Source: a virus
Virus record (IMG/VR): IMGVR_UViG_3300017963_000025
Coordinates: 1 to 64,000 of that record
Reading direction: 5' to 3' (one strand)
Length of the DNA: 64,000 bases
Position 1 is the first letter of the stretch; each line of letters begins with the position of its first letter. The notes beneath the pieces are model-generated. The model was not told where the DNA came from, did no database searches, and saw only the letters and a program-made list of their open reading frames with translations. Below are positions 2,900 through 48,376 of the stretch, piece after piece. Position numbers and translations under genes: made by a program.

Positions 2900-5500
2900 A
2901 TGTGCTTGCAGAGCGAATGCGAACTTTACCCAAACAACCATGTCAAAGTACCGTATATCCGTGGGGATAACGGTATCATTTTTTACGGGGAATATCCGGG
3001 ATTCGAAGAGGAACGCCAACGGCTCCCCTTTGTCGGGGAATCCGGACAAATGGCGGCGGCATGTTTTCACGAGGCGGGATTGGATTGGAACCGAACAGCA
3101 AAGATGAACGCGCTACGGTGCAGAATTGACAAGGGAAAATTTTCGGATGGCCGTCTTACCAAAATGATCAAATGTTGTCGCGCCAACACGACGGAGGCAA
3201 TTGCCGCATTGGCCCCCCGTATCATCATCATGGCCGGAAATCTGGCCCTGAAACAACTGACCGGCCGATCCGGTATTACGGCAAACAAAGGGAAGTGGTT
3301 CCGGTCCAAGGACATCGACAATTGCTGGCTATTCCCGGTGAACAACCCGGCGTACATTTGCCGAAATCCACACTTGAAACCCGCGTACATTACCGCCCTG
3401 AACGTGGTAAGGGCGGCTGTTGAAAACAATTTCCAACCGGTGACGGAAATCACCGGCGCATCCTACCAAGAAATACAAAGTTTGAAATCGGAAACCACAA
3501 TTTTTACCGACACCAATGTTTTGATCGGACTGGATACGGAAACCCAGGGGATCAATTGGAATGATCCGAATTTTGTTCCCATATCCTTCTCGGTATCACC
3601 GGTAACAGGGGTGGGGTATGACATTGTGTTGTTTGAGGAAAACGAACAAAGGAATACGCATCAAATTCTCGAATCACTCCGGGGAAAAGTGAACCGGGCG
3701 GACTATCTTTGGCGAACAATCCGGTGGATGAGAAACGGTGAGCCAACGGACGTGCATGTCCGACCGGCATCCGGTTTCATGAGAAAAGTGACCGAGCTAT
3801 GGGAATTGGTAGAGAGTGACCGGATTAAAAAGGTGTTAATGAATGCGAACTATGACTACCACGTATTTGATACCTTGTTTATGGGCGTGTTCGGAAAAAT
3901 ACCCCGGTATCGCGGCTTTGTGGCGGATGTTCAGGCCAATGCCAACCTGATTGATGAAAATCAGTTTGTCAAACCGAATCTGGTATCCCTCCAACTCTCG
4001 TTCACAGACATCACCTCTGCGTATGATCACGCGTTTTCACAAGATTACGACAAAGCGGACATGCTGGCCGTCCCACGGAAACCTCGTGCCTATTATGCGG
4101 CGGCGGACAGTGACACCACCCGGCGGGTGTTCCTCTCTCAATGGAACGTGTTGAATCGGTATCCAAAGCTAAAAAACTACGCGTTAAAATTTACGGTTCC
4201 CACCCTGAACAGTCTGCGGGTGATGGAACGGAACGGCGCACAGGTGGATACCGATCGGTTGCCACGGATGACGGATCGGATGATCTCCACTATGGAAGCA
4301 TACGCCTCTGACATGCTAAAATTGGTGCCAAAAAAGATAAGAAAGCGCCATGAAAATCAGGAGAAATTCACCCGAAAAAAATTTCTCCTGGATATTATGC
4401 TGAACGGTTTCGGAATTAAGTGGAAAAAGAAGTCTCAGAAAACTGGGGAACCCGCATTTGACAAAGAGGTGCGAAAACTCCTGTTGGACCGGGCCACTGG
4501 GGATTGTCTAGAATTTTTGAATCTGTACGGACAATGGCAGGAAACCCACACCTTTGTTACCAGATACCTGAACGGGTTCAAAAAGGCGATTCACGTGGAC
4601 AATCGTATTCACACCAAATTTTCACTGGCCACCACGGTCACCGGCCGGGTGGCATCCTCTGACCCAAACATGCAGAACATCCCAAAGCGGTCCAAACTGG
4701 CAAAAGAAATCCGGTCCCTTATAATACCCCGTCCCGGCTATGTGCTGATGGCGGCGGACGAGTCACAATCCGAATTGCGGTGGATTACATTCCTGTCCGG
4801 TGATCCGGAAATGCACCGGGTGTATCGGGACGGGGGGGACATCCACCTGGAAACCGCCATGTCGATGGCACGACAAATGGAAAAAGAATGGTCGTCCTTG
4901 TCAGAGGATGAAAAAAAAGACATCCGCACCAAAGCAAAGCCGGTAAATTTCGGAGTGGTGTATCTGATCTCCCCGGAGGGATTGAAAACCGATGCAAAGA
5001 CCTCCTATGGTGCGGATATTTCGTTGGAGGATGCGGAAAGCTATATCCGCGCATTCTTCAATAAGTATCGAAATATTCCGTTATACCATCAGAATATGAT
5101 CGCGTTTGCCCAGAAATACGGATACGTTGAATCGGTATTGGGCCGACGACGACGATTGCCAGACATTCGGTCGGACAATATTCGGTTTCGGTCGGATGCG
5201 GAACGACGCGCGGTCAATTTCCCGATTCAGGGACCATCTTCCGATACGGTGCTGATTGCGTTGAATATGATCGAGGATACCGGGTATGATCCGGACGAAT
5301 TCCGTCCGGTACTGTTTATCCACGACGAACTGGTGGCAGAGGTACGGGAGGATAAAATTGATCATTACGCCCACCTGATGAAATGGGCGCTAACCAACCC
5401 AAACATTGTATTCAAACGGGATTTCGGGTTCGAGATGCCGGTCAAACTTGAATCGGATGTTAAAATCGGGTATAATCTGAGTGAGATGGCAGACCTCTGA
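2900..5500 (+). CDS. polA: Family A DNA polymerase with N-terminal family-4 uracil-DNA-glycosylase-like domain (SPO1 type) and 3'-5' exonuclease
   Basis: UDG motif GEYPGFEE..PFVGESG with Cys ligands; exo DTET; TGRVASSDPNMQNIP; motif A DESQSELR; motif B KPVNFGVVY; motif C IHDEL. Confidence 0.95.
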   Translation: MCLQSECELYPNNHVKVPYIRGDNGIIFYGEYPGFEEERQRLPFVGESGQMAAACFHEAGLDWNRTAKMNALRCRIDKGKFSDGRLTKMIKCCRANTTEAIAALAPRIIIMAGNLALKQLTGRSGITANKGKWFRSKDIDNCWLFPVNNPAYICRNPHLKPAYITALNVVRAAVENNFQPVTEITGASYQEIQSLKSETTIFTDTNVLIGLDTETQGINWNDPNFVPISFSVSPVTGVGYDIVLFEENEQRNTHQILESLRGKVNRADYLWRTIRWMRNGEPTDVHVRPASGFMRKVTELWELVESDRIKKVLMNANYDYHVFDTLFMGVFGKIPRYRGFVADVQANANLIDENQFVKPNLVSLQLSFTDITSAYDHAFSQDYDKADMLAVPRKPRAYYAAADSDTTRRVFLSQWNVLNRYPKLKNYALKFTVPTLNSLRVMERNGAQVDTDRLPRMTDRMISTMEAYASDMLKLVPKKIRKRHENQEKFTRKKFLLDIMLNGFGIKWKKKSQKTGEPAFDKEVRKLLLDRATGDCLEFLNLYGQWQETHTFVTRYLNGFKKAIHVDNRIHTKFSLATTVTGRVASSDPNMQNIPKRSKLAKEIRSLIIPRPGYVLMAADESQSELRWITFLSGDPEMHRVYRDGGDIHLETAMSMARQMEKEWSSLSEDEKKDIRTKAKPVNFGVVYLISPEGLKTDAKTSYGADISLEDAESYIRAFFNKYRNIPLYHQNMIAFAQKYGYVESVLGRRRRLPDIRSDNIRFRSDAERRAVNFPIQGPSSDTVLIALNMIEDTGYDPDEFRPVLFIHDELVAEVREDKIDHYAHLMKWALTNPNIVFKRDFGFEMPVKLESDVKIGYNLSEMADL

Positions 5501-8155: not shown

Positions 8156-8173
8156 TCCGCAAACGTTTGCGGA
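8156..8173. repeat. 18-bp palindrome, copy 3
   Basis: Exact match, 1 nt after TAA. Confidence 0.97.
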
Positions 8174-8359: not shown

Positions 8360-8719
8360 ATGTCGTTACAATATTTCAGTATCAACGAATTTCGATGCAA
8401 ATGCGGATGTGGAATGAATCGTATCAGCATGGATTTTGTCACCCGCTTGGATTGCGCCAGAAAACTGGCCGGGGTGCCGTTCGTCATCACCTCCGGATGC
8501 CGATGTCCGACGCATAATCGTGCGGTGGGCGGATCCGCATATTCGTCCCACATGAGGGGGTTGGCGGCGGATATCCGATGTCGGGGAGACGCGGATCGGT
8601 TTCATATTCTAAACGGTCTGATCCGTGCCGGATTTACCCGTATCGGTGTCGGGTCTGACTTTATCCATGTAGATGCCGACACGCGAAAACGGGACGAAAT
8701 TATCTGGGTGTATCGGTAA
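8360..8719 (+). CDS. Peptidase M15A (endolysin-like)
   Basis: FRCKCGCG, ITSGCRC..HN.AVGG..SSHMRGLAADI, FIHVD. Confidence 0.9.
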   Translation: MSLQYFSINEFRCKCGCGMNRISMDFVTRLDCARKLAGVPFVITSGCRCPTHNRAVGGSAYSSHMRGLAADIRCRGDADRFHILNGLIRAGFTRIGVGSDFIHVDADTRKRDEIIWVYR

Positions 8720-8729
8720 CCAATCTTAT

Positions 8730-8801
8730 CGCGGCGTGGGGGAGTGGTCACCCTGCAAGGCTCATGCCCTTGCGACGCAGGTTCGAATCCTGCCGCCGCC
8801 A
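8730..8801 (+). tRNA. tRNA-Met(CAT), initiator type, no encoded CCA
   Basis: Cloverleaf: acceptor CGCGGCG/CGCCGCC with 1:72 mismatch, D arm GGGG/CCCT, anticodon stem CAAGG/CCTTG with loop CTCATGC, T arm GCAGG-TTCGAAT-CCTGC, discriminator A. Confidence 0.85.
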
Positions 8802-8825
8802 TCAAACTTAAAAAGAGGTGTGACA

Positions 8826-9140
8826 ATGGAATTTGGCACGGCATCGGAGGCAGTTGACTTTGTGGACAGACAATTCCGAACCGCGACGGCGCGGGGCGTG
8901 AGTCATTGGGGAACCGGCGGGTGGCCGGAGTGGTCTGTAAAATTTAATCATTTCATCAATAAAAAAATCGAAACCGAGGGAGCGGATTCCGCGTGGTATT
9001 ACGTGCGCCTGTATTGGCAAAACACCACACACAAGCTCGGAAAAGACAAACTGGAACGAAAACCTTTCAATATCCGATTACGCCAGTTGAAAAGTGATAT
9101 CCGTAACTTGACAAAAAACAAAACCTGTGATAGTAAATAG
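8826..9140 (+). CDS. Hypothetical protein
   Basis: GAGGTG RBS. Confidence 0.55.
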   Translation: MEFGTASEAVDFVDRQFRTATARGVSHWGTGGWPEWSVKFNHFINKKIETEGADSAWYYVRLYWQNTTHKLGKDKLERKPFNIRLRQLKSDIRNLTKNKTCDSK

Positions 9141-9176
9141 GGTATCAATCACTTACAACGTAATCGGGAAAAGAAA

Positions 9177-9728
9177 ATGACACATAAGTACTCAGTCCGT
9201 GAGGGAACCTATCGCGGAAGAAATGGCATGCTCCAAAAATTGCGACTGTTCTTTATTGTGGGAGGGAAGGAAATACCACAATATAATATCTTACGGGAAG
9301 GATTAGTCAGACACGCCGATTGTCACAAAACCAGTCCACCCGCACACGACCTTGCATCAGAAATAAACAGGCTTGCAATCCGCGTCAGGTCATCCGTGTA
9401 TTTTGAAACCGAACTGGAGTACTGCAAAGTTTTCGTTTCACAGGAAGGACAGTTCAAACAATTCTATTCCTTTTATCTGCAATTTGTCCAACCCCCGAAA
9501 AAAATCGTTACCATTCGTCCGTTTGATCCTGATTCCCCCCTGATGTTCCGAGGTTCAGTTAGATTCCTAACTAAGGCCGAGGTAATGCAACTAATTGACC
9601 CGACAAGTACGTCGGCAACATTTTATCTGGCACAATCCACACTGCCAAGAAAAGTACTAGAAAACATGATTACTGTGCAAGAAAAAACGATTCGCGGGCA
9701 ACGGAAAATCCGTATCATCGCAAATTAG
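9177..9728 (+). CDS. Hypothetical protein carrying an inverted 60-nt dnaB-derived insert (9338-9397)
   Basis: 183-aa ORF; insert matches the reverse complement of 14612-14671. Confidence 0.6.
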   Translation: MTHKYSVREGTYRGRNGMLQKLRLFFIVGGKEIPQYNILREGLVRHADCHKTSPPAHDLASEINRLAIRVRSSVYFETELEYCKVFVSQEGQFKQFYSFYLQFVQPPKKIVTIRPFDPDSPLMFRGSVRFLTKAEVMQLIDPTSTSATFYLAQSTLPRKVLENMITVQEKTIRGQRKIRIIAN

Positions 9729-9756
9729 AAACAACAATTAGAAAAGGAGAATTAGT

Positions 9757-10131
9757 ATGTCTTTTTGGGCAACATCAAAAGTACCTATTGAAAGTATGCC
9801 ACTATTCTCATCACTTGCGGAAATAAGAGGAATTACAGTGGTAAAAATGGAACATGCCGAAGCTATAAGAAACGGATTAAAAAAAACGCATCGGCTTATG
9901 ATTGCCGATAAAGCAGAGGCATGGGTGGTGAGAGACAAATCCGGCAAATCGTTTCTGTACTGCGATACGGATCGGTCTTATAGCAAATTTGCCCGTAAAC
10001 AGATAAGAGACGGGATGACAATAATGCAGGAGTACACCCTCTGCAAATTGAAAAGTGCAATGGCCGGAAGAACCCTGCGAATCCAAGCGCAGAACGTGGT
10101 TGACAACCGACTGATATTGAAGGTGGCCTGA
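9757..10131 (+). CDS. DUF1257/Ycf35-like protein
   Basis: N-terminal MS-W-T-K-I pattern, C-terminal MQEY..K..A....I motif; lies beside a DUF2997-like gene. Confidence 0.5.
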   Translation: MSFWATSKVPIESMPLFSSLAEIRGITVVKMEHAEAIRNGLKKTHRLMIADKAEAWVVRDKSGKSFLYCDTDRSYSKFARKQIRDGMTIMQEYTLCKLKSAMAGRTLRIQAQNVVDNRLILKVA

Positions 10132-10134
10132 TAT

Positions 10135-10332
10135 ATGAGAGTATGCGAGAAATGTGCGACAGAGAATCACCCGGAATTCACCGAATTCAACACGCGCCTT
10201 GCACGATGCGCAAAGTGCGGAGATATGACATTGTGCATTTTGGAAAAAAATTTGCCACCCCCAAAATCCGTTCCGGTTCTGCCGACTGATAACGGGTACG
10301 ACTATATTTTTGGTAATAGCGAATGGTGGTAG
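10135..10332 (+). CDS. Small zinc-ribbon protein
   Basis: CEKC and CAKC pairs. Confidence 0.5.
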   Translation: MRVCEKCATENHPEFTEFNTRLARCAKCGDMTLCILEKNLPPPKSVPVLPTDNGYDYIFGNSEWW

Positions 10333-10345
10333 AAAGGAGGAATAA

Positions 10346-10528
10346 ATGCAATACACCATAACGGTTGAGGAAGATGGTTCCGTAAGAGTCGAAGGCAACG
10401 GATTTCAGGGAACGGAGTGTGTCAAACACAAAGATATTGACACGTTGCTAAAGGCCATTGGCACGGACAAACGAAATGTCACCATGAAAACCGCACAAAC
10501 CGCTGTTGGTATTCGTCTTCAAACATGA
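10346..10528 (+). CDS. DUF2997-like protein
   Basis: ITVEEDGSVRVEGNGFQGTEC signature; AAGGAGG RBS. Confidence 0.75.
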   Translation: MQYTITVEEDGSVRVEGNGFQGTECVKHKDIDTLLKAIGTDKRNVTMKTAQTAVGIRLQT

Positions 10529-10710
10529 TGAATAAGAGATATATACCGATCAATGATCCAAGATTGTATGCATGCTGTTCCAATGCCACCAGAAAAAAAT
10601 TTCGTGAAAGGATTTTGGAATTGAGAAATAAGGCAATAGCGAAAGGTATGCAACTTTTGGATGAGGACGACGTGCTTGATGAAGTAAAACGACGGAGGGA
10701 CGGAACATGA
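10525..10710 (+). CDS. Hypothetical protein
   Basis: ATGA overlaps at both ends. Confidence 0.5.
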   Translation: MMNKRYIPINDPRLYACCSNATRKKFRERILELRNKAIAKGMQLLDEDDVLDEVKRRRDGT

Positions 10711-10964
10711 TTATAACCATCACGCCGGACGGCAGCATTGAAATGGTTTATAACGATCTAATGGCGGACATACTGAATGACCTGGGAAACCTGTCTTGCC
10801 GACGTGCGTCAAATGTCGTTTTTAACGACACAACCAAAAAATGGGATGTTGTCACAACGAACGGCGATCCCATTCTGTCAGAAAAACGTCGGACAGATGC
10901 TATCAGAAGAGAAATTGATTATCTGGAGTGGTTATTGGAAAACGGGTGGGGGCCACCGAAATAA
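10707..10964 (+). CDS. Conserved small protein usually found with DUF1257/DUF2997
   Basis: ITPDGSI..VY.D....LG.L...RASNV......W pattern. Confidence 0.55.
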   Translation: MIITITPDGSIEMVYNDLMADILNDLGNLSCRRASNVVFNDTTKKWDVVTTNGDPILSEKRRTDAIRREIDYLEWLLENGWGPPK

Positions 10965-11073
10965 TCACAATGGCGGGATCATTTCAACCCCCACCCGCCC
11001 GCTTGCAGAGGTGCAATTGTGGACATCGGATATCCGTGTTATATGAAATTATTCCCGCCACGTCAAGCAAAAA

Positions 11074-11322
11074 ATGAGAGGAATCGAAATGTTTCAGCAT
11101 GAAATGGAATTCCGTGAAGATACGGAAATGATTGATTATGTGTTTGAATTTTTGGGGGTAACCCCCAGGGGCGCAATTATTGTAACGGATGAGAATAACC
11201 GCAAATTATTCCTGCCCCCGGATCATGTCGAACCCGACGAACCTCCGGAAGAACTCGAACCCGGAGAAACCGTGCTAATCCAAATACCCGTGTGGCTGGC
11301 GAAAAAGGAGGGACTTATCTGA
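11074..11322 (+). CDS. Hypothetical protein
   Basis: C-terminal IPVWLAKKEGLI, typical of a small phage family. Confidence 0.55.
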   Translation: MRGIEMFQHEMEFREDTEMIDYVFEFLGVTPRGAIIVTDENNRKLFLPPDHVEPDEPPEELEPGETVLIQIPVWLAKKEGLI

Positions 11323-11690
11323 TGGAGGGACCAAAAATAACGTATAAATGCAAAGTGTGTGGAGAAAAATTGACCGATTTCGAACAATTGCGGAAGCACT
11401 GTCCCCAAGATGAGCGGTTTGAAGATTGGATCAAACCGTTTGAACTTTGTCATTATACTGACGGTTTGTTTTGCAAAGAATGCCGTCAGAAAATAATTGA
11501 CAAACGTATCGCCGAGTTTGACGGGGACACGAAATACACAGATGAAATGATTTGCCCGCATTGCGGCTATGAATACTCGGACAGTTGGGAATTGCAAAGC
11601 GAATCCGACGAAATAATATGTGACGATTGCGGAAACGAATTTAGATATGAAAGAATCGTAACAGCGGAGTATATAACGAGTAAAATCTGA
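11322..11690 (+). CDS. Zinc-finger protein carrying a 23-aa segment identical to the SSB protein
   Basis: Four CxxC pairs; 11373-11441 matches 17977-18045. Confidence 0.65.
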   Translation: MEGPKITYKCKVCGEKLTDFEQLRKHCPQDERFEDWIKPFELCHYTDGLFCKECRQKIIDKRIAEFDGDTKYTDEMICPHCGYEYSDSWELQSESDEIICDDCGNEFRYERIVTAEYITSKI

Positions 11691-11710
11691 AATGAGGAGG
11701 GACTCATCTT

Positions 11711-11947
11711 ATGGCGACAAAAAAATCATTTGTAAAAAATATTTCATGGAACAACCACCCGCCTACTGAGAAGGACTTTCCAATTCTGATTCTTATTTAT
11801 TCGATGGGATCCGAAAAGATATATACGGACATTCTCAGTGCGGATATTATTAAGACGGATTCGCGACCGAATTTCAGCCAAATCACGTTCGGAACGGAAT
11901 ACGTGTGGAAAAGCCTGTTTGATCTGATGGTCCGACATGAAATCTAA
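11711..11947 (+). CDS. Hypothetical protein
   Basis: GAGGAGG RBS. Confidence 0.45.
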   Translation: MATKKSFVKNISWNNHPPTEKDFPILILIYSMGSEKIYTDILSADIIKTDSRPNFSQITFGTEYVWKSLFDLMVRHEI

Positions 11948-12043
11948 AGGAGTAGGAAAATATGTAAATTGTTAAAAGACTTGTATGTGGACCAACGTGA
12001 GTTTATTGGTGGACAAGAAATCAAGTGAGAAAGGAAAAGTGCA

Positions 12044-12274
12044 ATGAGTAAAGCCATTTCATATGAAGATTACCATGCATACGGATGTCCTGCATGTGAG
12101 TCAGGAAACAAAAAGGTTGCCATCCATATCCAGACACCTGTTGACGCATTGCTAATATGTTCGGAGTGCGGAATGGGTTTTATTGTGGCGTTTGACGGTG
12201 CGAAGGAAACACCAAACGGAACCGTTGTCGATCATCCGTTGAAAAAACAGACATGCTTAACGGAGTTGGGATAA
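12044..12274 (+). CDS. Zinc-ribbon hypothetical protein
   Basis: CPAC and CSEC pairs. Confidence 0.5.
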   Translation: MSKAISYEDYHAYGCPACESGNKKVAIHIQTPVDALLICSECGMGFIVAFDGAKETPNGTVVDHPLKKQTCLTELG

Positions 12275-12292
12275 TCCGCAAACGTTTGCGGA
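12275..12292. repeat. 18-bp palindrome, copy 4 (extends to 24 bp, 12272-12295)
   Basis: Exact match directly after TAA. Confidence 0.97.
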
Positions 12293-12368
12293 TTAAAAAT
12301 CATTACATTGTGATACTTTACTCGTCCAAAACAATATCACAATGTAATGATTTGACAGCTACCGTAAA

Positions 12369-12545
12369 ATCCAACCCATGGGAAAATATGGCCTTTTTTT
12401 CCCACCAGCGGGAATATGCGTCCCATGGGCGGGAATATGCGTCCCGCTGGTTGGATGAGTATATAAATATAAGAAATAAGATATAAGAAATAATAAGTGA
12501 ATAATAGCGAAATGAATTCCGCTGCTAGCAATTTTTTTATTTTTT
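12369..12545. other. Candidate replication origin (iterons plus AT-rich tract)
   Basis: GCGGGAATATGCGTCCC at 12408 and 12429 (21-bp period) inside nested inverted repeats, then ATATAAGAAATAAG-type AT-rich repeats; upstream of the initiator gene. Confidence 0.6.
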
Positions 12546-12656
12546 TGGGAAGGTGGATTTCCAGAGGGGAATCCAAAAGTTTGTATCAGCGCTACATTCA
12601 GATAGGATATAGGCGCGGCCAAAAGGTTTTACTTTTTTCAACCCGGAGGTGACAAA

Positions 12657-13544
12657 ATGACCACATTTCGAAAAAACAAATACCAGATTTCGTACCTGAC
12701 CCGCAAATCCGCCACGTTATTTTGTGGAAATACGGATCGGGAAATTGTTTGCCACATCATTGACCGCACATTGTCATGGGGGAAAATAGCCGAATTTATT
12801 CCGTATTCCGAGTTGGTTGAAGGATTCCCGGTATTGTGCTATTTTCCCCGTATATCCAGATCAGCCGCATATCGTTCCGTTTCAAATCTGCTTGACAATG
12901 GCATCATCGGAAGGCATCGGGAAACGCGATGCGTATATTCTGTGAATATTCCGGAATTCTACAAATTGTGGCATCGCATGTTTCACGACGCGCAAGACAA
13001 CAAATTGTGGAATACGGTGAAATCCGTGGAATCCGATATTCTGGACCAATACAACCGGTCGGATATTCGATTTGAACCCCTTACGCTGAGCAGCGAGGCC
13101 ACTATGAATATTGAAACCGCCATCCGTTTTGCCCAACGGAAATCCGTTGCGGCCCGAAAACGCAATGCCGAAAAACCGGTAAAAAATTCAAAACATCTCA
13201 TTTGTCTGATTCGCTATCTGGCGGACGACATGAAGGTGTATATCAACGAATATGTCACCGACAAAGTCCGGGGGCAGATGAACCATTTTATCAAATCCTA
13301 TTGCCCGTCGATCAAAAAAACGCCGGAGTGGTTCGTGCGCGAATCCATGGAGGAGTGGCCCCGGATGTTCAATGAAAAAATTGTGCTGAACCGCATGTTT
13401 TGCTTTGATGAGATGTACCGACGTAAGAACAAAATTTTTGAGCATCTGGTCCGGGACGAGTTGGACGATGCCGAATTCGGACGACCGAATGAACCGAGAG
13501 AAATCCGGATTATTGATTTGCGAACCAAAAAACAGTTGGCCTGA
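12657..13544 (+). CDS. Replication initiator, lambda O-like N-terminal winged HTH
   Basis: IIDRTLSWGK..FIPYSEL...ISRSAAYRSVSNLLDNGII resembles Phage_rep_O; heads the replication operon. Confidence 0.6.
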   Translation: MTTFRKNKYQISYLTRKSATLFCGNTDREIVCHIIDRTLSWGKIAEFIPYSELVEGFPVLCYFPRISRSAAYRSVSNLLDNGIIGRHRETRCVYSVNIPEFYKLWHRMFHDAQDNKLWNTVKSVESDILDQYNRSDIRFEPLTLSSEATMNIETAIRFAQRKSVAARKRNAEKPVKNSKHLICLIRYLADDMKVYINEYVTDKVRGQMNHFIKSYCPSIKKTPEWFVRESMEEWPRMFNEKIVLNRMFCFDEMYRRKNKIFEHLVRDELDDAEFGRPNEPREIRIIDLRTKKQLA

Positions 13545-13553
13545 CCGCGCAGA

Positions 13554-14279
13554 TTGCCGTATTTTCGATCTTTTCATGGCAACCCATATCTGACTATCAA
13601 AAAACAAACAAATGCCGAAATTCGGCAAATGAGAGGCTTTTACGCAATGACAATCACATACCCCTGGTCCGACACCTCCCATATCGAGCCGGACTTGCTG
13701 AAACTGGTAATGACGCATCTTCAAACGAATGTTGCCCGCCAACACGAAATTGACGAAAAAGAACGCATTGAAAAACTTACACTGACGATTCTCAGACAAT
13801 TGGAATCTGCCGAATCGCGCATGCTTTTGGTGGTGTCCGGTGATATCCGCCTCTTGCGAGATTTGTGGGTGGTGCCGGCCACGTACACGCTGACCGTGCG
13901 CCATGACGGAGAAATACCGGAGAGTCGGATCACTGATGCGAATCGTATCGGGGAATGCTACCGCTACCCGACACAACCGGTTCAAAAGGAAATTGATGTA
14001 ATCACCCGCACCGGATTTCTATTGTGGGAAAACATTGGCACCCCGTATTATCTGGCGAAAAGCCGAACGGCGGAAATCGAGGGGGTGTTGTCCGAACGGA
14101 TACGCCTGAAATTGCCCACCGTGTTCAGCCATTTTTCAACGCATTCGGACAACCGCGTTTTTCGGGAAATAAGCGTGTCCGTGGGAACGAAGATTGCCAC
14201 GATTTTGGAACAATGCGCGGATGTGCTGGTGGCCGAGTCCGGCAAGTCCGCTGGAACCGTGACGAAAGTGAGGATGTGA
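13554..14279 (+). CDS. Degenerate DnaC/IstB-like helicase loader
   Basis: FLLWENIG...VLSERIRLKLPTVFS resembles the DnaC C-terminal half; no intact Walker A; lies between initiator and DnaB. Confidence 0.45.
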   Translation: MPYFRSFHGNPYLTIKKQTNAEIRQMRGFYAMTITYPWSDTSHIEPDLLKLVMTHLQTNVARQHEIDEKERIEKLTLTILRQLESAESRMLLVVSGDIRLLRDLWVVPATYTLTVRHDGEIPESRITDANRIGECYRYPTQPVQKEIDVITRTGFLLWENIGTPYYLAKSRTAEIEGVLSERIRLKLPTVFSHFSTHSDNRVFREISVSVGTKIATILEQCADVLVAESGKSAGTVTKVRM

Positions 14280-15556
14280 TGTCGGTGGGCATAGGGCTGA
14301 TTAAGTCGTTGTGTGACCAAAACGTTCGCGCATCCGTTGTGTATGACCATGGGATCGGGGATCATCTGTTTACGCCGGACGAACGCGCCGCGTGGGATTT
14401 TGTTCGGGATTTTTGCACGACCCACGGACGCTATCCGTCTGTTGACACCGTAGTGGGCCATTATCCCGAATTGTCCGTCCGCTTTGACAATATGCCGGAC
14501 GAACCGTTTACCTATTGGGCCGACTTGGGCAAAAAAAGGCGGGTGACCAATCTGGCCAGGGAAATGGCGGACACGGTGCATCGGAGGATGTCCGCAGGTG
14601 CGAATATTGACACGGACGACCTGACGCGAATTGCAAGCCGGTTTATATCGGACGCGCGATCCTGCACAGGGTCAAAAATAGTATCACTAAGTGATATCAC
14701 TGAAGAATTGTTGCGGATGCATGACCACCGCCAACTGGCAACGGGCATTTCCGGTATTCCCACCGGGTTCCCGTTTTTTGACCGGGTGTTTGACGGATTA
14801 CAGACCGGGGACGTGCTGAGTCTGGTGGGGAAGACCGGCATGGGAAAGTCGTTTGTCATGGCGAAGATGTGGAACGCCGCATACGACAACGGGTACAGCC
14901 CGTTCGTGGCATCCATGGAAATGCCAATACCCCAACAGGCACGGCGCACATTGGCCCTGCGCTCACGACTTCCGGGAACGGCGATTCGCGTGGGCCGGTT
15001 GGACTTTGCCGGTCGGGAGTTATTGGGGCATACGGCGGAAGCGGTACGGGAAAACCGACAACAAATCTGGTTTACGGATCATGTCAAATCCGTGGACGAG
15101 ATTGCCGCCGTCGCACGTGACCTTGGGGCAAACCCGATATTTATTGACGGCGCGTATATTATTGACGAAAATGATCGCGGTGCGGTGTGGGAACGTGTGG
15201 GCAAGGTGGCCCAGAATATCCGGGATATGGCGATGAGCCTGGGGGTTAGCGTGGTGAGCAGCTATCAGTTCAACAATTCCGGGGAGGGGTTGCATAATAT
15301 CCATTTTAGCCCGAATATCAAATACCTTGCCAGTATTGTTTTGGGGCTGAGACAGGAGGAACCCCGCCCCGGCGTGGGGCGTGTGCTGAGCACCACCGAA
15401 CGGAAAATATTGGAAATCCTCAAAGGCCGGGAGGGGGAGTATGGGGCTATCGAGGTGGAATGGGATATGCGGCGGACCAATATCTGCCAACGGCGCGTGC
15501 TATGGTCACGGGCGGATGATGACGAATCCGACGGAGGGGACGAATGGAACGAATAA
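14279..15556 (+). CDS. dnaB: DnaB-like replicative helicase
   Basis: GIPTGF..FD....GLQ.GD, GKTGMGKS, SMEM, IFIDG, YQFN, KGREGE. Confidence 0.9.
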   Translation: MSVGIGLIKSLCDQNVRASVVYDHGIGDHLFTPDERAAWDFVRDFCTTHGRYPSVDTVVGHYPELSVRFDNMPDEPFTYWADLGKKRRVTNLAREMADTVHRRMSAGANIDTDDLTRIASRFISDARSCTGSKIVSLSDITEELLRMHDHRQLATGISGIPTGFPFFDRVFDGLQTGDVLSLVGKTGMGKSFVMAKMWNAAYDNGYSPFVASMEMPIPQQARRTLALRSRLPGTAIRVGRLDFAGRELLGHTAEAVRENRQQIWFTDHVKSVDEIAAVARDLGANPIFIDGAYIIDENDRGAVWERVGKVAQNIRDMAMSLGVSVVSSYQFNNSGEGLHNIHFSPNIKYLASIVLGLRQEEPRPGVGRVLSTTERKILEILKGREGEYGAIEVEWDMRRTNICQRRVLWSRADDDESDGGDEWNE

Positions 15557-16143
15557 ACATTGTAGGGTTGGAACAAGAGCGACGGATTATGGAAATCGCG
15601 GTCACCGGGAATCACGGGGCCATGCTGATTGGTCGAAAGAACAGTGGCAAACGGCTCATGATGAGGGAATTTCTAAACATAATCGGTTATCCTGATTCCG
15701 TACTGACCCATGCGTCCAACAAATATGTGGGACCGGATGACAGTTGTCTGGTGTTTGACCCGGCGTATTGCCACAACGGGAGTGTGCTGGCGAACAAACG
15801 ACACGGACGGGTGGGATGGAAAGACGTGGCCGGAAATCCGAAACAGGAATCTATGATTCACGTGGCAAAGCGTGTTTTTTTAGCGCGTTATTTTTTGTAT
15901 GAGAAGCCGTTCGATTATGATGCAATCCGAAAAAAATCGGACGGCGTTACATTGAAACTGATTGAGGAGGCATACGACCGGTTGTCACTGAATTCCGGGG
16001 ATGTCGTGGATTTGATGAACGTGGCCTACACGATTTTTATTTTGTCCCGTGAAAAAAAATTGGGTGTCGGACATGTTGCGGAGGCAATCGCCTACTGCCC
16101 ACAAAAATTGGATCATGAGCATGAAAAAAGAAACGATCCTTAG
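15544..16143 (+). CDS. Truncated ComM/YifB (Mg-chelatase-like AAA+) homologue
   Basis: IVGLEQERRIMEIAVTGNHGAMLIGRKNSGK matches the ComM AAA start; EAYDRLSL....MNVAYTI..L....HVAEAIAY matches the ComM C-terminus; middle missing. Confidence 0.65.
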   Translation: MERINIVGLEQERRIMEIAVTGNHGAMLIGRKNSGKRLMMREFLNIIGYPDSVLTHASNKYVGPDDSCLVFDPAYCHNGSVLANKRHGRVGWKDVAGNPKQESMIHVAKRVFLARYFLYEKPFDYDAIRKKSDGVTLKLIEEAYDRLSLNSGDVVDLMNVAYTIFILSREKKLGVGHVAEAIAYCPQKLDHEHEKRNDP

Positions 16144-17460: not shown

Positions 17461-18297
17461 ATGAATGATTGGTGCATTACCGGTGAAAAAGGATGGGATA
17501 TTGCGGAACAAGACGCGAAAGACAGACAACAGAGGTATGAAGAAAACAAGAAAATCAAATACCGATTTCGGATTCCGCCGAACAGTGAGGCCACGGTGCT
17601 GTGGTTGGACAACCTTTGGTATTTTCTGTATGAACATTCGGTCAGGTTGAACGGGTATTTTAGCCGGATGACCTGTATTCAGTCCAAGGAGGATTGTCCG
17701 GAATGTTTGCGCGGAGGAAGGCGCATATTCGGTGTGGCGTCTACAATTATTCGCCTGACGCCCTATGTTACGAGAAAAGGAGAACAACGAAATTATATGA
17801 AGTGTCCCGTGGTGTTCAGCGGGAAAGCGTTGGAAAATATCAAAACCCAACACCAAAATATGGATAAGAATATGATCGGATTGGTGTACCGGTTCAGACG
17901 CGGGTCCGACTCCAAAAGTTGTGCCACCGGGGAGGATTTCACCCCCATAATGCAAAACGGATCGGTGATCCGAATCACCGATTTTGAACAATTGCGGAAG
18001 CATTGTCCGCAGGATGAGCGATTTGAAGACTGGATCAAACCGTTTGATTATACCGAACAATTCCCGTTTTATCCGGCGGATGTGATGCGTCGAAAGCTCG
18101 GTATCCCGGACCCGATGGGCGCGGCGCAGCCCCACGGAACGGAAAGCACCGATTTGAATTCCATATTCGGAACGAATGCCGTGTCCGTCGCACCGACACC
18201 CGATTCTGGCGCACCTGCCAATATTGATGATTTGTTTGCAGGCGGGGGGTCACAACAAACAGAAACAGTGCCACCGGACGATGACATACCATTTTGA
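17461..18297 (+). CDS. ssb: Single-stranded DNA-binding protein (gp32-like, zinc-binding)
   Basis: RFRIP, EH..C...CPEC, acidic tail ending DDDIPF. Confidence 0.8.
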   Translation: MNDWCITGEKGWDIAEQDAKDRQQRYEENKKIKYRFRIPPNSEATVLWLDNLWYFLYEHSVRLNGYFSRMTCIQSKEDCPECLRGGRRIFGVASTIIRLTPYVTRKGEQRNYMKCPVVFSGKALENIKTQHQNMDKNMIGLVYRFRRGSDSKSCATGEDFTPIMQNGSVIRITDFEQLRKHCPQDERFEDWIKPFDYTEQFPFYPADVMRRKLGIPDPMGAAQPHGTESTDLNSIFGTNAVSVAPTPDSGAPANIDDLFAGGGSQQTETVPPDDDIPF

Positions 18298-25386: not shown

Positions 25387-26349
25387 ATGGCAAAAGCAAA
25401 ACTTGAAACAAAAACGAATGTGGGGCAGAGTACGATCAGCAAAACCGCGAGATCCCTGTACGATGCGATTATTAGTGCGGACAGTGTGATTGATGATTCG
25501 TTTGTGTCTTTGGCAGAAAATCTCCACAAGTTCAGTTCGATGGAATACTACCAACAATTCGGGTATTCCAGATTCACAGAGTTTGCGGAGAAAGAGGTAC
25601 GGATCGGTTCCCGGAAATCCGAATACATGGTGAAAATATGGAATTTCGTCAAGGATTGTGGTATTCCTACGAAAGAAGTAAAAAAACTCGGATGGTCAAA
25701 GATGAAAGAGGTGGCGCGGGTGGCATCCGTTGAAACCGCAAAGGCGTGGATGGAAAAAGCAAAAATGATGTCCACGCGGGATTTAATCGCGGAGGTGAAA
25801 AAACACAAAAATCCGTCAAAACCGGGAGATGAAAACGGAAGCACGACCGAGTTTAAATTCACTGTGGACACGGACGAATCCACCATTGTCACGGATGCCA
25901 CTAATTTGGCGAAGACACTCGGAGCGAAAACGGATGCGGATGCCATGCTGGTGATTTGTCAAGAGTGGATGGAGTTCAAGGGGGAAAGTCCGGTCATCAC
26001 GCCACTGGATACAATGCTTAAATACATGGCAGCTAATTACGGCGTGATCCTGACGGTTGCGGAACAACCTGAATCTGCGGAGGTGGCGGCGGAAAAAGAA
26101 TCAAAAGAATCGGCAAAGAGAAAAGAAACAAAAAAGAAAACAAAACCGGATGCAAAGCCGAAAAAATCCAGAAAAATCGTGAAGACCGTTCCACCGCCGG
26201 ATACAAGCTATAGCCCGGAAAGGGAACTGGACCGTATTATCGGAACCGAACCTCCTCCCCCGGAATTTGATTCGTTGGAATCAATTATGGCTGGTAGTGC
26301 GAAGGAAAAAGGAACGGATGATTTCGATTTGGACGCATTTCTGGGGTAA
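25387..26349 (+). CDS. Hypothetical protein (possible DNA-binding)
   Basis: GAGG RBS; GWSK motif, Lys-rich then acidic tail. Confidence 0.6.
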   Translation: MAKAKLETKTNVGQSTISKTARSLYDAIISADSVIDDSFVSLAENLHKFSSMEYYQQFGYSRFTEFAEKEVRIGSRKSEYMVKIWNFVKDCGIPTKEVKKLGWSKMKEVARVASVETAKAWMEKAKMMSTRDLIAEVKKHKNPSKPGDENGSTTEFKFTVDTDESTIVTDATNLAKTLGAKTDADAMLVICQEWMEFKGESPVITPLDTMLKYMAANYGVILTVAEQPESAEVAAEKESKESAKRKETKKKTKPDAKPKKSRKIVKTVPPPDTSYSPERELDRIIGTEPPPPEFDSLESIMAGSAKEKGTDDFDLDAFLG

Positions 26350-48098: not shown

Positions 48099-48376
48099 AT
48101 AACGGCAAGACCGGGGAAATTTAAAACCAAACTCGGACGAACCCAAACTGTTCACGCAAAACAGTCCCCGGTCGAACCGTGATGTCAAAAACGTATTTGT
48201 CACACGGTGAGGAGAAAAGAATGGTCGAAAACTTTTTGCTTGTCACACGAAAAGCGGATATTACATTCCTTACCATATTTTCACCATGTATTCGGATTTT
48301 TCATGTCCCCCCTACCAAACGGGGACTAAAATTATATGATATTTTGAATCGATTTTTCCTGTTGGGAGATAGCGCT

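Follow-up and report, generated by a model that had tools for sequence, protein, structure and literature searches.

An inverted dnaB fragment in a surface loop of an unrelated phage gene: a probable templated-insertion scar

Introduction

How did a fragment of a replicative helicase gene come to lie, backwards and in frame, inside an unrelated gene of the same phage, and does it do anything there? This question is raised by a stretch of about 60 nucleotides in the gene at 9177-9728 of the DNA presented here. Our window covers the first 64 kb of a virus record of 85,381 bp, a complete genome with 123-nt direct terminal repeats. The preliminary description of the locus took the piece to be part of a foreign dnaB allele, and proposed that it could be either a repair scar or an antisense element directed against competitors. 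Here we consider the match itself, the gene that received it, the gene from which it came, the pattern of base differences between the two copies and the genome in which they lie.

Results

An inverted copy of a dnaB segment

When reverse-complemented, 9338-9397 reads TDDLTRIASLFISDARSCAG; the corresponding stretch of the resident dnaB gene, 14612-14671, reads TDDLTRIASRFISDARSCTG. Between the two, 46 of 60 bases are the same, as are 18 of 20 residues; eight of the 20 codons are identical, ten differ synonymously and two non-synonymously, exactly the counts originally given for this pair, and the resemblance to the resident DnaB is thereby confirmed. The match is two bases longer, covering 9338-9399 on the minus strand and 14610-14671 on the plus strand (48/62, 77%). 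It ends abruptly on each side, the flanks of both copies being unrelated. Read forwards, the patch encodes residues 55-74 of its host protein, ORF183 (PAHDLASEINRLAIRVRSSV), and its minus strand reads as the DnaB-like sequence above; the resident segment encodes DnaB residues 112-131. The patch at 9338-9399 is homologous to dnaB 14610-14671. Searching the phage's own 85-kb genome with blastn returned the pair with E values of 5e-11, 1e-9 and 6e-8, and a repeat search found it as an inverted repeat of 55 nt at 82%. A degenerate 48-nt pattern for the peptide has two sites in the window, the patch and dnaB, and none in 100 shuffles. A chance match was considered and rejected, with E ~1e-9 for the patch against dnaB. 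The template gene lies 5.2 kb from the patch. At the junctions no more than 1-2 nt are shared, and the match spans 61-62 nt for a frame-keeping insertion of 60 or 63 nt, as judged from the two present-day copies.

The recipient gene and its loop

ORF183 (9177-9728, plus strand) belongs to a phage family with no assigned function, which has a beta-rich core and C-terminal helices, and the patch falls in a loop of variable length. An exhaustive HMMER search recovered 92 relatives of 160-230 aa. No family in Pfam or PHROGs matched the protein, nothing in the PDB exceeded Z 3.9 (Foldseek, VIA-align), the ESM Atlas gave nothing usable, and its fold relatives are uncharacterised phage proteins only. 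The reading frame 9177-9728 is open and the family profile runs stop-free over 9177-9725 (E = 3.6e-52), in line with the earlier statement that the inserted length leaves the host frame intact.

An AlphaFold model based on the family alignment reached pLDDT 88 and pTM 0.80. Model residues 51-70, which correspond to the patch, have a pLDDT of about 59 and are the sole internal stretch of low confidence. Given that low pLDDT is limited to the patch in an otherwise confident model, the patch is predicted to be an excursion from the ORF183 fold, placed in a permissive variable loop. This surface loop is 32 aa long (12 + 20), against a family median of 13 and a range of 8-44, and in comparison with the short-loop homologue P0026 there are 21 extra residues at the patch site. 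These figures bear out the claim that the segment is extra in its host gene, on the basis of family loop lengths and P0026.

Approximately 375 nt upstream of ORF183, a tRNA-Met gene (anticodon CAT, 8729-8803) lies inside a mechanically called ORF at 8673-9140, which is for this reason probably not a gene over its full length.

The source gene

The dnaB gene (14279-15556, plus strand) codes for a 425-aa replicative helicase, although its mechanically called ORF already begins at 14024. Its C-terminal ATPase domain matches PF03796 at 1.4e-19 and phrog_19 at 3e-35. The closest relatives among 5.8 billion proteins share only 30-36% identity with it, and residues 112-131 align to four relatives in this range without an indel. 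In the DnaB model, which is of low confidence (pLDDT 57), the copied segment corresponds to approximately one whole helix (112-130), it aligns with an equivalent helix, and the helix just after it (137-154) is probably the linker. As the segment is native to DnaB whereas ORF183 has it as an addition, the direction of copying is from dnaB to ORF183, and DnaB is the origin of the segment, as had been proposed. The donor allele was a different matter. The preliminary description placed it in a related phage; the degenerate pattern found none in IMG/VR, JGI metagenome contigs or GTDB genomes, and none was present in the set of 5.8 billion proteins.

What the base differences say

The ten synonymous codons had been taken as proof that the two copies diverged under DnaB coding constraint. 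This argument is confounded, given that the third codon positions of the antisense frame of ORF183 coincide with those of the dnaB frame. Eleven of the 14 changes are at third positions (binomial P = 7e-4); since these positions are common to both frames, the bias proves nothing alone and fits constraint in either frame. The non-synonymous codons number two in the dnaB frame and five in the ORF183 frame. If 11 third-position changes and three others are placed at random, two or fewer dnaB non-synonymous codons are obtained with P = 0.02, and the ORF183 count is ordinary. We then used a mutation-acceptance simulation (omega 0.05) to calculate the probability of the observed pair of non-synonymous counts. 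This was 0.09 with all changes under dnaB constraint, 0.02 with half under dnaB and half under ORF183 constraint, 0.002 with half of the changes neutral, and below 1/4000 under ORF183 constraint only or under neutrality. The simulation thus puts dnaB-frame constraint about 5-fold ahead of joint constraint by the two frames, and 50-fold or more ahead of neutral drift. The Nei-Gojobori method gives pS 0.73 and pN 0.046 in the dnaB frame, and dN/dS comes to about 0.02 for the dnaB reading and about 0.1 for that of ORF183. Simulation and Nei-Gojobori values both favour the dnaB frame, and therefore most of the divergence reflects dnaB genes that parted as alleles rather than a decaying copy in ORF183. 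Divergence under DnaB constraint is consequently supported as the best-fitting model, although constraint in both frames trails it by a factor of about five only. A comparison of codon usage between the patch and resident dnaB was uninformative.

The differences are not evenly spread along the patch. In the half that we call alpha (9363-9399, minus strand), 34 of 37 bases (92%) are identical to dnaB 14610-14646 and third positions differ in two of 11 codons; the three differences leave the ORF183 residues unchanged, and in the dnaB frame one of the three is an L/R change. In the beta half (9338-9362, minus strand), 14 of 25 bases (56%) are identical to dnaB 14647-14671 and all nine third positions differ, with eight of nine residues kept in the dnaB frame against five of nine in the ORF183 frame. 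A permutation test for a change-point gave P = 0.0014 for third positions and P = 0.01 for all bases. The changes in alpha look like drift after insertion, those in beta like allelic divergence. We think that the simplest reading of the change-point is that the donor and resident dnaB alleles are mutually mosaic, with a junction near codon 123, which, judging from the low-confidence model, may be close to the border between N-terminal domain and linker. Ectopic conversion of alpha, or selection on alpha at the nucleotide level, are other possible causes. The view of the patch as a foreign allele is accordingly upheld in part: beta is saturated at synonymous sites, but alpha is 92% identical to the resident gene, no donor was found, and the data are accounted for just as well by a later exchange of the resident allele.

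Assembly and genome context

The genome is a metagenome assembly, which raises the question of whether the patch is an assembly artefact or stems from two strains joined in a chimera. In the independent Logan assembly of two runs, a single contig of 36,936 nt covers 9000-15600 with 0 differences and a depth of about 22-23 in both; these runs are one sediment and one seawater metagenome, and either may be the phage's own source. No second-strain contig at >=80% identity was found in the same two runs. The exact ORF183 and DnaB proteins occur on three contigs, and assemblers are not misled by repeats such as an inverted 62-mer of 77% identity. We therefore hold an artefact to be very improbable.

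An annotated phage collection contained no DNA relative of 9000-15600 and no tblastn match for ORF183, and none was found in IMG/VR with ORF183, DnaB and the long-loop proteins P0035 and P0037 as queries. A search of sequencing runs for RNA runs containing the stretch listed none. Over the surroundings of the patch, Rfam reported tRNA only, and promoter and terminator scans around the patch gave no more hits than shuffled sequence. The genes called around the patch, from 2.9 to 19.7 kb, are on the plus strand. Among the proteins that the phage encodes are a family A polymerase of its own, a RecA/UvsX-like recombinase, an exonuclease and helicases. In the polymerase (2900-5500), an N-terminal domain of the uracil-DNA-glycosylase superfamily (PF03167, residues 23-165) is fused to the exonuclease and polymerase domains. 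Beyond the window, near the right end of the genome (82629-84149), a long diverged tandem-repeat array lies in coding sequence, with units of about 100-400 nt at 60-70% identity.

Other ectopic patches in the same genome

The patch in ORF183 has company. A second patch of 71 nt (11373-11443, plus strand) lies in a zinc-finger ORF at 11292-11690 and is a same-sense, in-frame copy of part of ssb, with six differences, all at synonymous third positions. Its source (17977-18047, plus strand) is in the gp32-like ssDNA-binding protein gene at 17461-18297, where it is native and aligns with LRKY..DLIKAVDY of distant SSBs. The product of this gene has tblastn matches of 25-27% to annotated phage SSBs, which share the same primase-SSB-helicase gene order. 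Because the segment is native in the SSB alignment, ssb is the donor and the zinc-finger gene the recipient. The opposite assignment, in which the segment is native to the zinc-finger gene, where it appears to complete a C2H2-like motif, was rejected by that alignment. Synonymous divergence does not differ significantly between the dnaB and ssb patches (pS 0.73 vs 0.50, Fisher P = 0.24), so that both could go back to a single donor lineage or a single swap of alleles.

A third candidate is a perfect 27-nt inverted match between 25615-25641 and 48273-48299, for which the chance expectation is about 1e-6. One copy forms codons 77-85 (KSEYMVKIW) of the ORF at 25387-26349. The other is in the non-coding leader of an N6/N4 DNA methyltransferase gene, about 80 nt upstream of its likely GTG start (48378), and is followed by a GTCCCC...GGGGAC hairpin; the duplex of the two 27-mers is predicted at -41 kcal/mol. 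The pair could be a third templated insertion, or else an antisense pair involving the leader or a small RNA. A self-tblastx of the genome revealed no further patches. Taking the ssb patch and the 27-mer together with the dnaB patch, the insertion process looks recurrent in this genome and arbitrary in orientation.

About 20 copies of a perfect 18-nt palindrome (TCCGCAAACGTTTGCGGA) occur between 2069 and 63496, spaced by about 4 kb (for example at 8156, 12275, 16455 and 18920). The copies at 8156 and 12275 bracket a block that holds both recipient genes, and the next ones flank the block with dnaB and that with ssb; both donor genes are in downstream replication blocks. That the palindromes are module borders for recombination is speculation on our part.

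Discussion

We consider the patch to be, more likely than not though with appreciable doubt, the scar of a templated insertion of the template-switch kind or the MMBIR kind (break-induced replication that is mediated by microhomology), received by a permissive loop from a diverged or since-replaced dnaB allele. Most likely it is a harmless product of error-prone DNA copying or repair and not a regulator or a weapon; we infer its lack of function. It is not a new biological system. Template-switch mutations of the type described by Ripley and Lovett occur in T4 and E. coli. In our case, while the DNA was replicated or a break repaired, a nascent end would have switched to the opposite strand as template, copied some 60 nt of a dnaB gene there and then returned, leaving the piece in the surface loop of ORF183. 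The insertion would have survived because its length is a multiple of three, it holds no stop in the host frame and the loop tolerates insertions; by our estimate, a random inverted insertion keeps the ORF open in about 1 in 8 cases (1/3 x (61/64)^20). The dnaB gene that served as template would not have been the present resident allele over its whole length, which would make the patch a small fossil of another dnaB allele. The template might have belonged to a related co-infecting phage. Alternatively, the insertion might have taken place within one genome, with resident dnaB from about codon 123 onward later replaced through recombination with a relative. A single history can explain everything, in which insertions within the genome were followed by replacement of the replication genes from mid-dnaB onward, or equally of the accessory block, by those of a relative; direct capture of fragments from a co-infecting relative is equally possible. 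Both the template-switch mechanism and the allele history are what we infer from the two copies. The polymerase, recombinase, exonuclease and helicases that the phage encodes are of the type that supports recombination-dependent replication in T4 (PMC3016281).

Points that speak against reading the patch as such a scar are that the template is 5.2 kb away, that the donor was not found in the collections searched, and that the change-point needs an extra event. The closest parallel is with MMBIR-type templated insertions (Osia et al., 2021, PMC8421209). As in those events, tens of bases were copied from elsewhere, often from the opposite strand, the flanks are undisrupted, the insertion is tolerated where it is harmless and several events are seen per genome. 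Classical template-switch insertions, however, copy from within about 100 bp (PMC8421209), and the present case differs from them in the distance of its template, in its allele-like synonymous changes, and in being in frame in a phage gene.

Mosaicism among phages, as described by Hendrix, arises through illegitimate and homologous recombination between relatives, and homologous modules are exchanged in place. It would account for the allele-like appearance of the patch and for the abrupt change of identity at one point, maybe near a domain border of DnaB. The difference is that our 62-nt fragment is ectopic, inverted and in an unrelated gene. With diversity-generating retroelements, too, a phage genome carries a short coding segment twice, as imperfect copies, but here the copies are inverted and in unrelated genes, without a reverse transcriptase. 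Such an element was rejected as a candidate, as no PF00078 reverse transcriptase is present in the complete 85-kb genome and the mismatches are not adenine-specific (the differences between patch and dnaB include T/C, G/A, T/G, T/A, A/C and G/C).

The templated-insertion scar has to be weighed against an older history, and against readings in which the patch has a function. An inverted copy could have been made long ago from resident dnaB, after which each copy drifted under the constraint of its own protein, the shared third positions sparing both. Coincident third positions, dN/dS values that are low in both frames (~0.02 and ~0.1) and the three changes in alpha, synonymous in the ORF183 frame with one L/R in the dnaB frame, are all in keeping with this, and the perfect 27-nt match shows that copies within the genome do happen. 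Nonetheless, pure dnaB constraint gives the observed counts about 5 times the probability that this history does, beta keeps the DnaB peptide (8/9) better than the ORF183 peptide (5/9), and strong purifying selection would have to act on a new loop of low model confidence. We judge this old copy to be unlikely. Somewhat less likely again is that the patch, and alpha in particular, is kept as an embedded antisense element, because ORF183 mRNA pairs with the dnaB mRNA of the phage itself or of a competitor and lowers helicase expression. ORF183 and dnaB are both on the plus strand, so their transcripts are complementary. The whole patch is predicted to form a duplex of -73 kcal/mol with dnaB mRNA, and alpha, with 34 of 37 bases complementary, one of -57 kcal/mol, against -15 +/- 3 in shuffles. 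Synonymous sites are more conserved in alpha than in beta, and the ORF at 25387-26349 and the methyltransferase leader share their perfect 27-nt complementarity. However, beta pairs no better than shuffled sequence, and the full duplex has 48 Watson-Crick pairs, one G-U pair and 13 mismatches; with one of the 14 changes rescued by G-U there is no sign of selection for pairing, and the mismatches track codon third positions. An inverted insertion in a genome read mostly from one strand gives complementarity for free, no Rfam family matches the patch, and the parallel ssb patch is in sense orientation and unable to pair.

Replication proteins, the helicase included, act in trans during co-infection. 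A competitor could therefore use resident DnaB, and a weapon aimed at its dnaB would be weak; together with the scarce G-U rescue and the sense orientation of the ssb patch, this leaves the competitor-directed option of the preliminary description without support. Phage antisense regulators such as P1/P7 c4 and lambda OOP are small non-coding RNAs dedicated to this task, each with a promoter and terminator of its own and with conserved pairing. They resemble the present case in the tens of bases that are complementary between two phage transcripts, but here the complementary stretch is in a coding loop, its mismatches are at third positions and no selection for pairing is seen. A bolder version holds that this lineage places pieces of its own or of competitors' genes in reverse into other transcripts as antisense segments (alpha against dnaB, the 27-mer against the methyltransferase leader), and we find this improbable; if true, reversed segments would couple or silence distant genes, as a form of RNA control embedded in coding sequence or of interference between phages. 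Finally, the minus strand could hold a nested gene, a 44-codon ORF (9457-9323) whose peptide would mimic, or compete with, one helix of the DnaB N-terminal hairpin. The frame is open across the patch, the patch corresponds to a predicted whole DnaB helix (residues 112-130) and 18 of 20 residues of the DnaB-frame peptide are conserved. Yet the frame has TTG starts only and a poor ribosome-binding site, it ends four codons past the patch, the called neighbours (2.9-19.7 kb) are on the plus strand, promoter-like hits are no commoner than in shuffles, and the DnaB model on which the helix is based is of low confidence (pLDDT 57). Such a gene is hardly to be expected.

With the templated-insertion scar as the preferred reading, ORF183 offers a natural example of a phage protein that gained a new 20-residue loop, made by reading part of another gene in antisense. 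Preserved in the scar is a dnaB allele absent from the databases searched, and the scar may also show where alleles were joined by recombination within dnaB. That a single 85-kb genome has three events of this kind suggests that phage genes regularly gain novelty from short templated insertions, an under-described source, and such insertions may serve to trace past co-infection or allele replacement.
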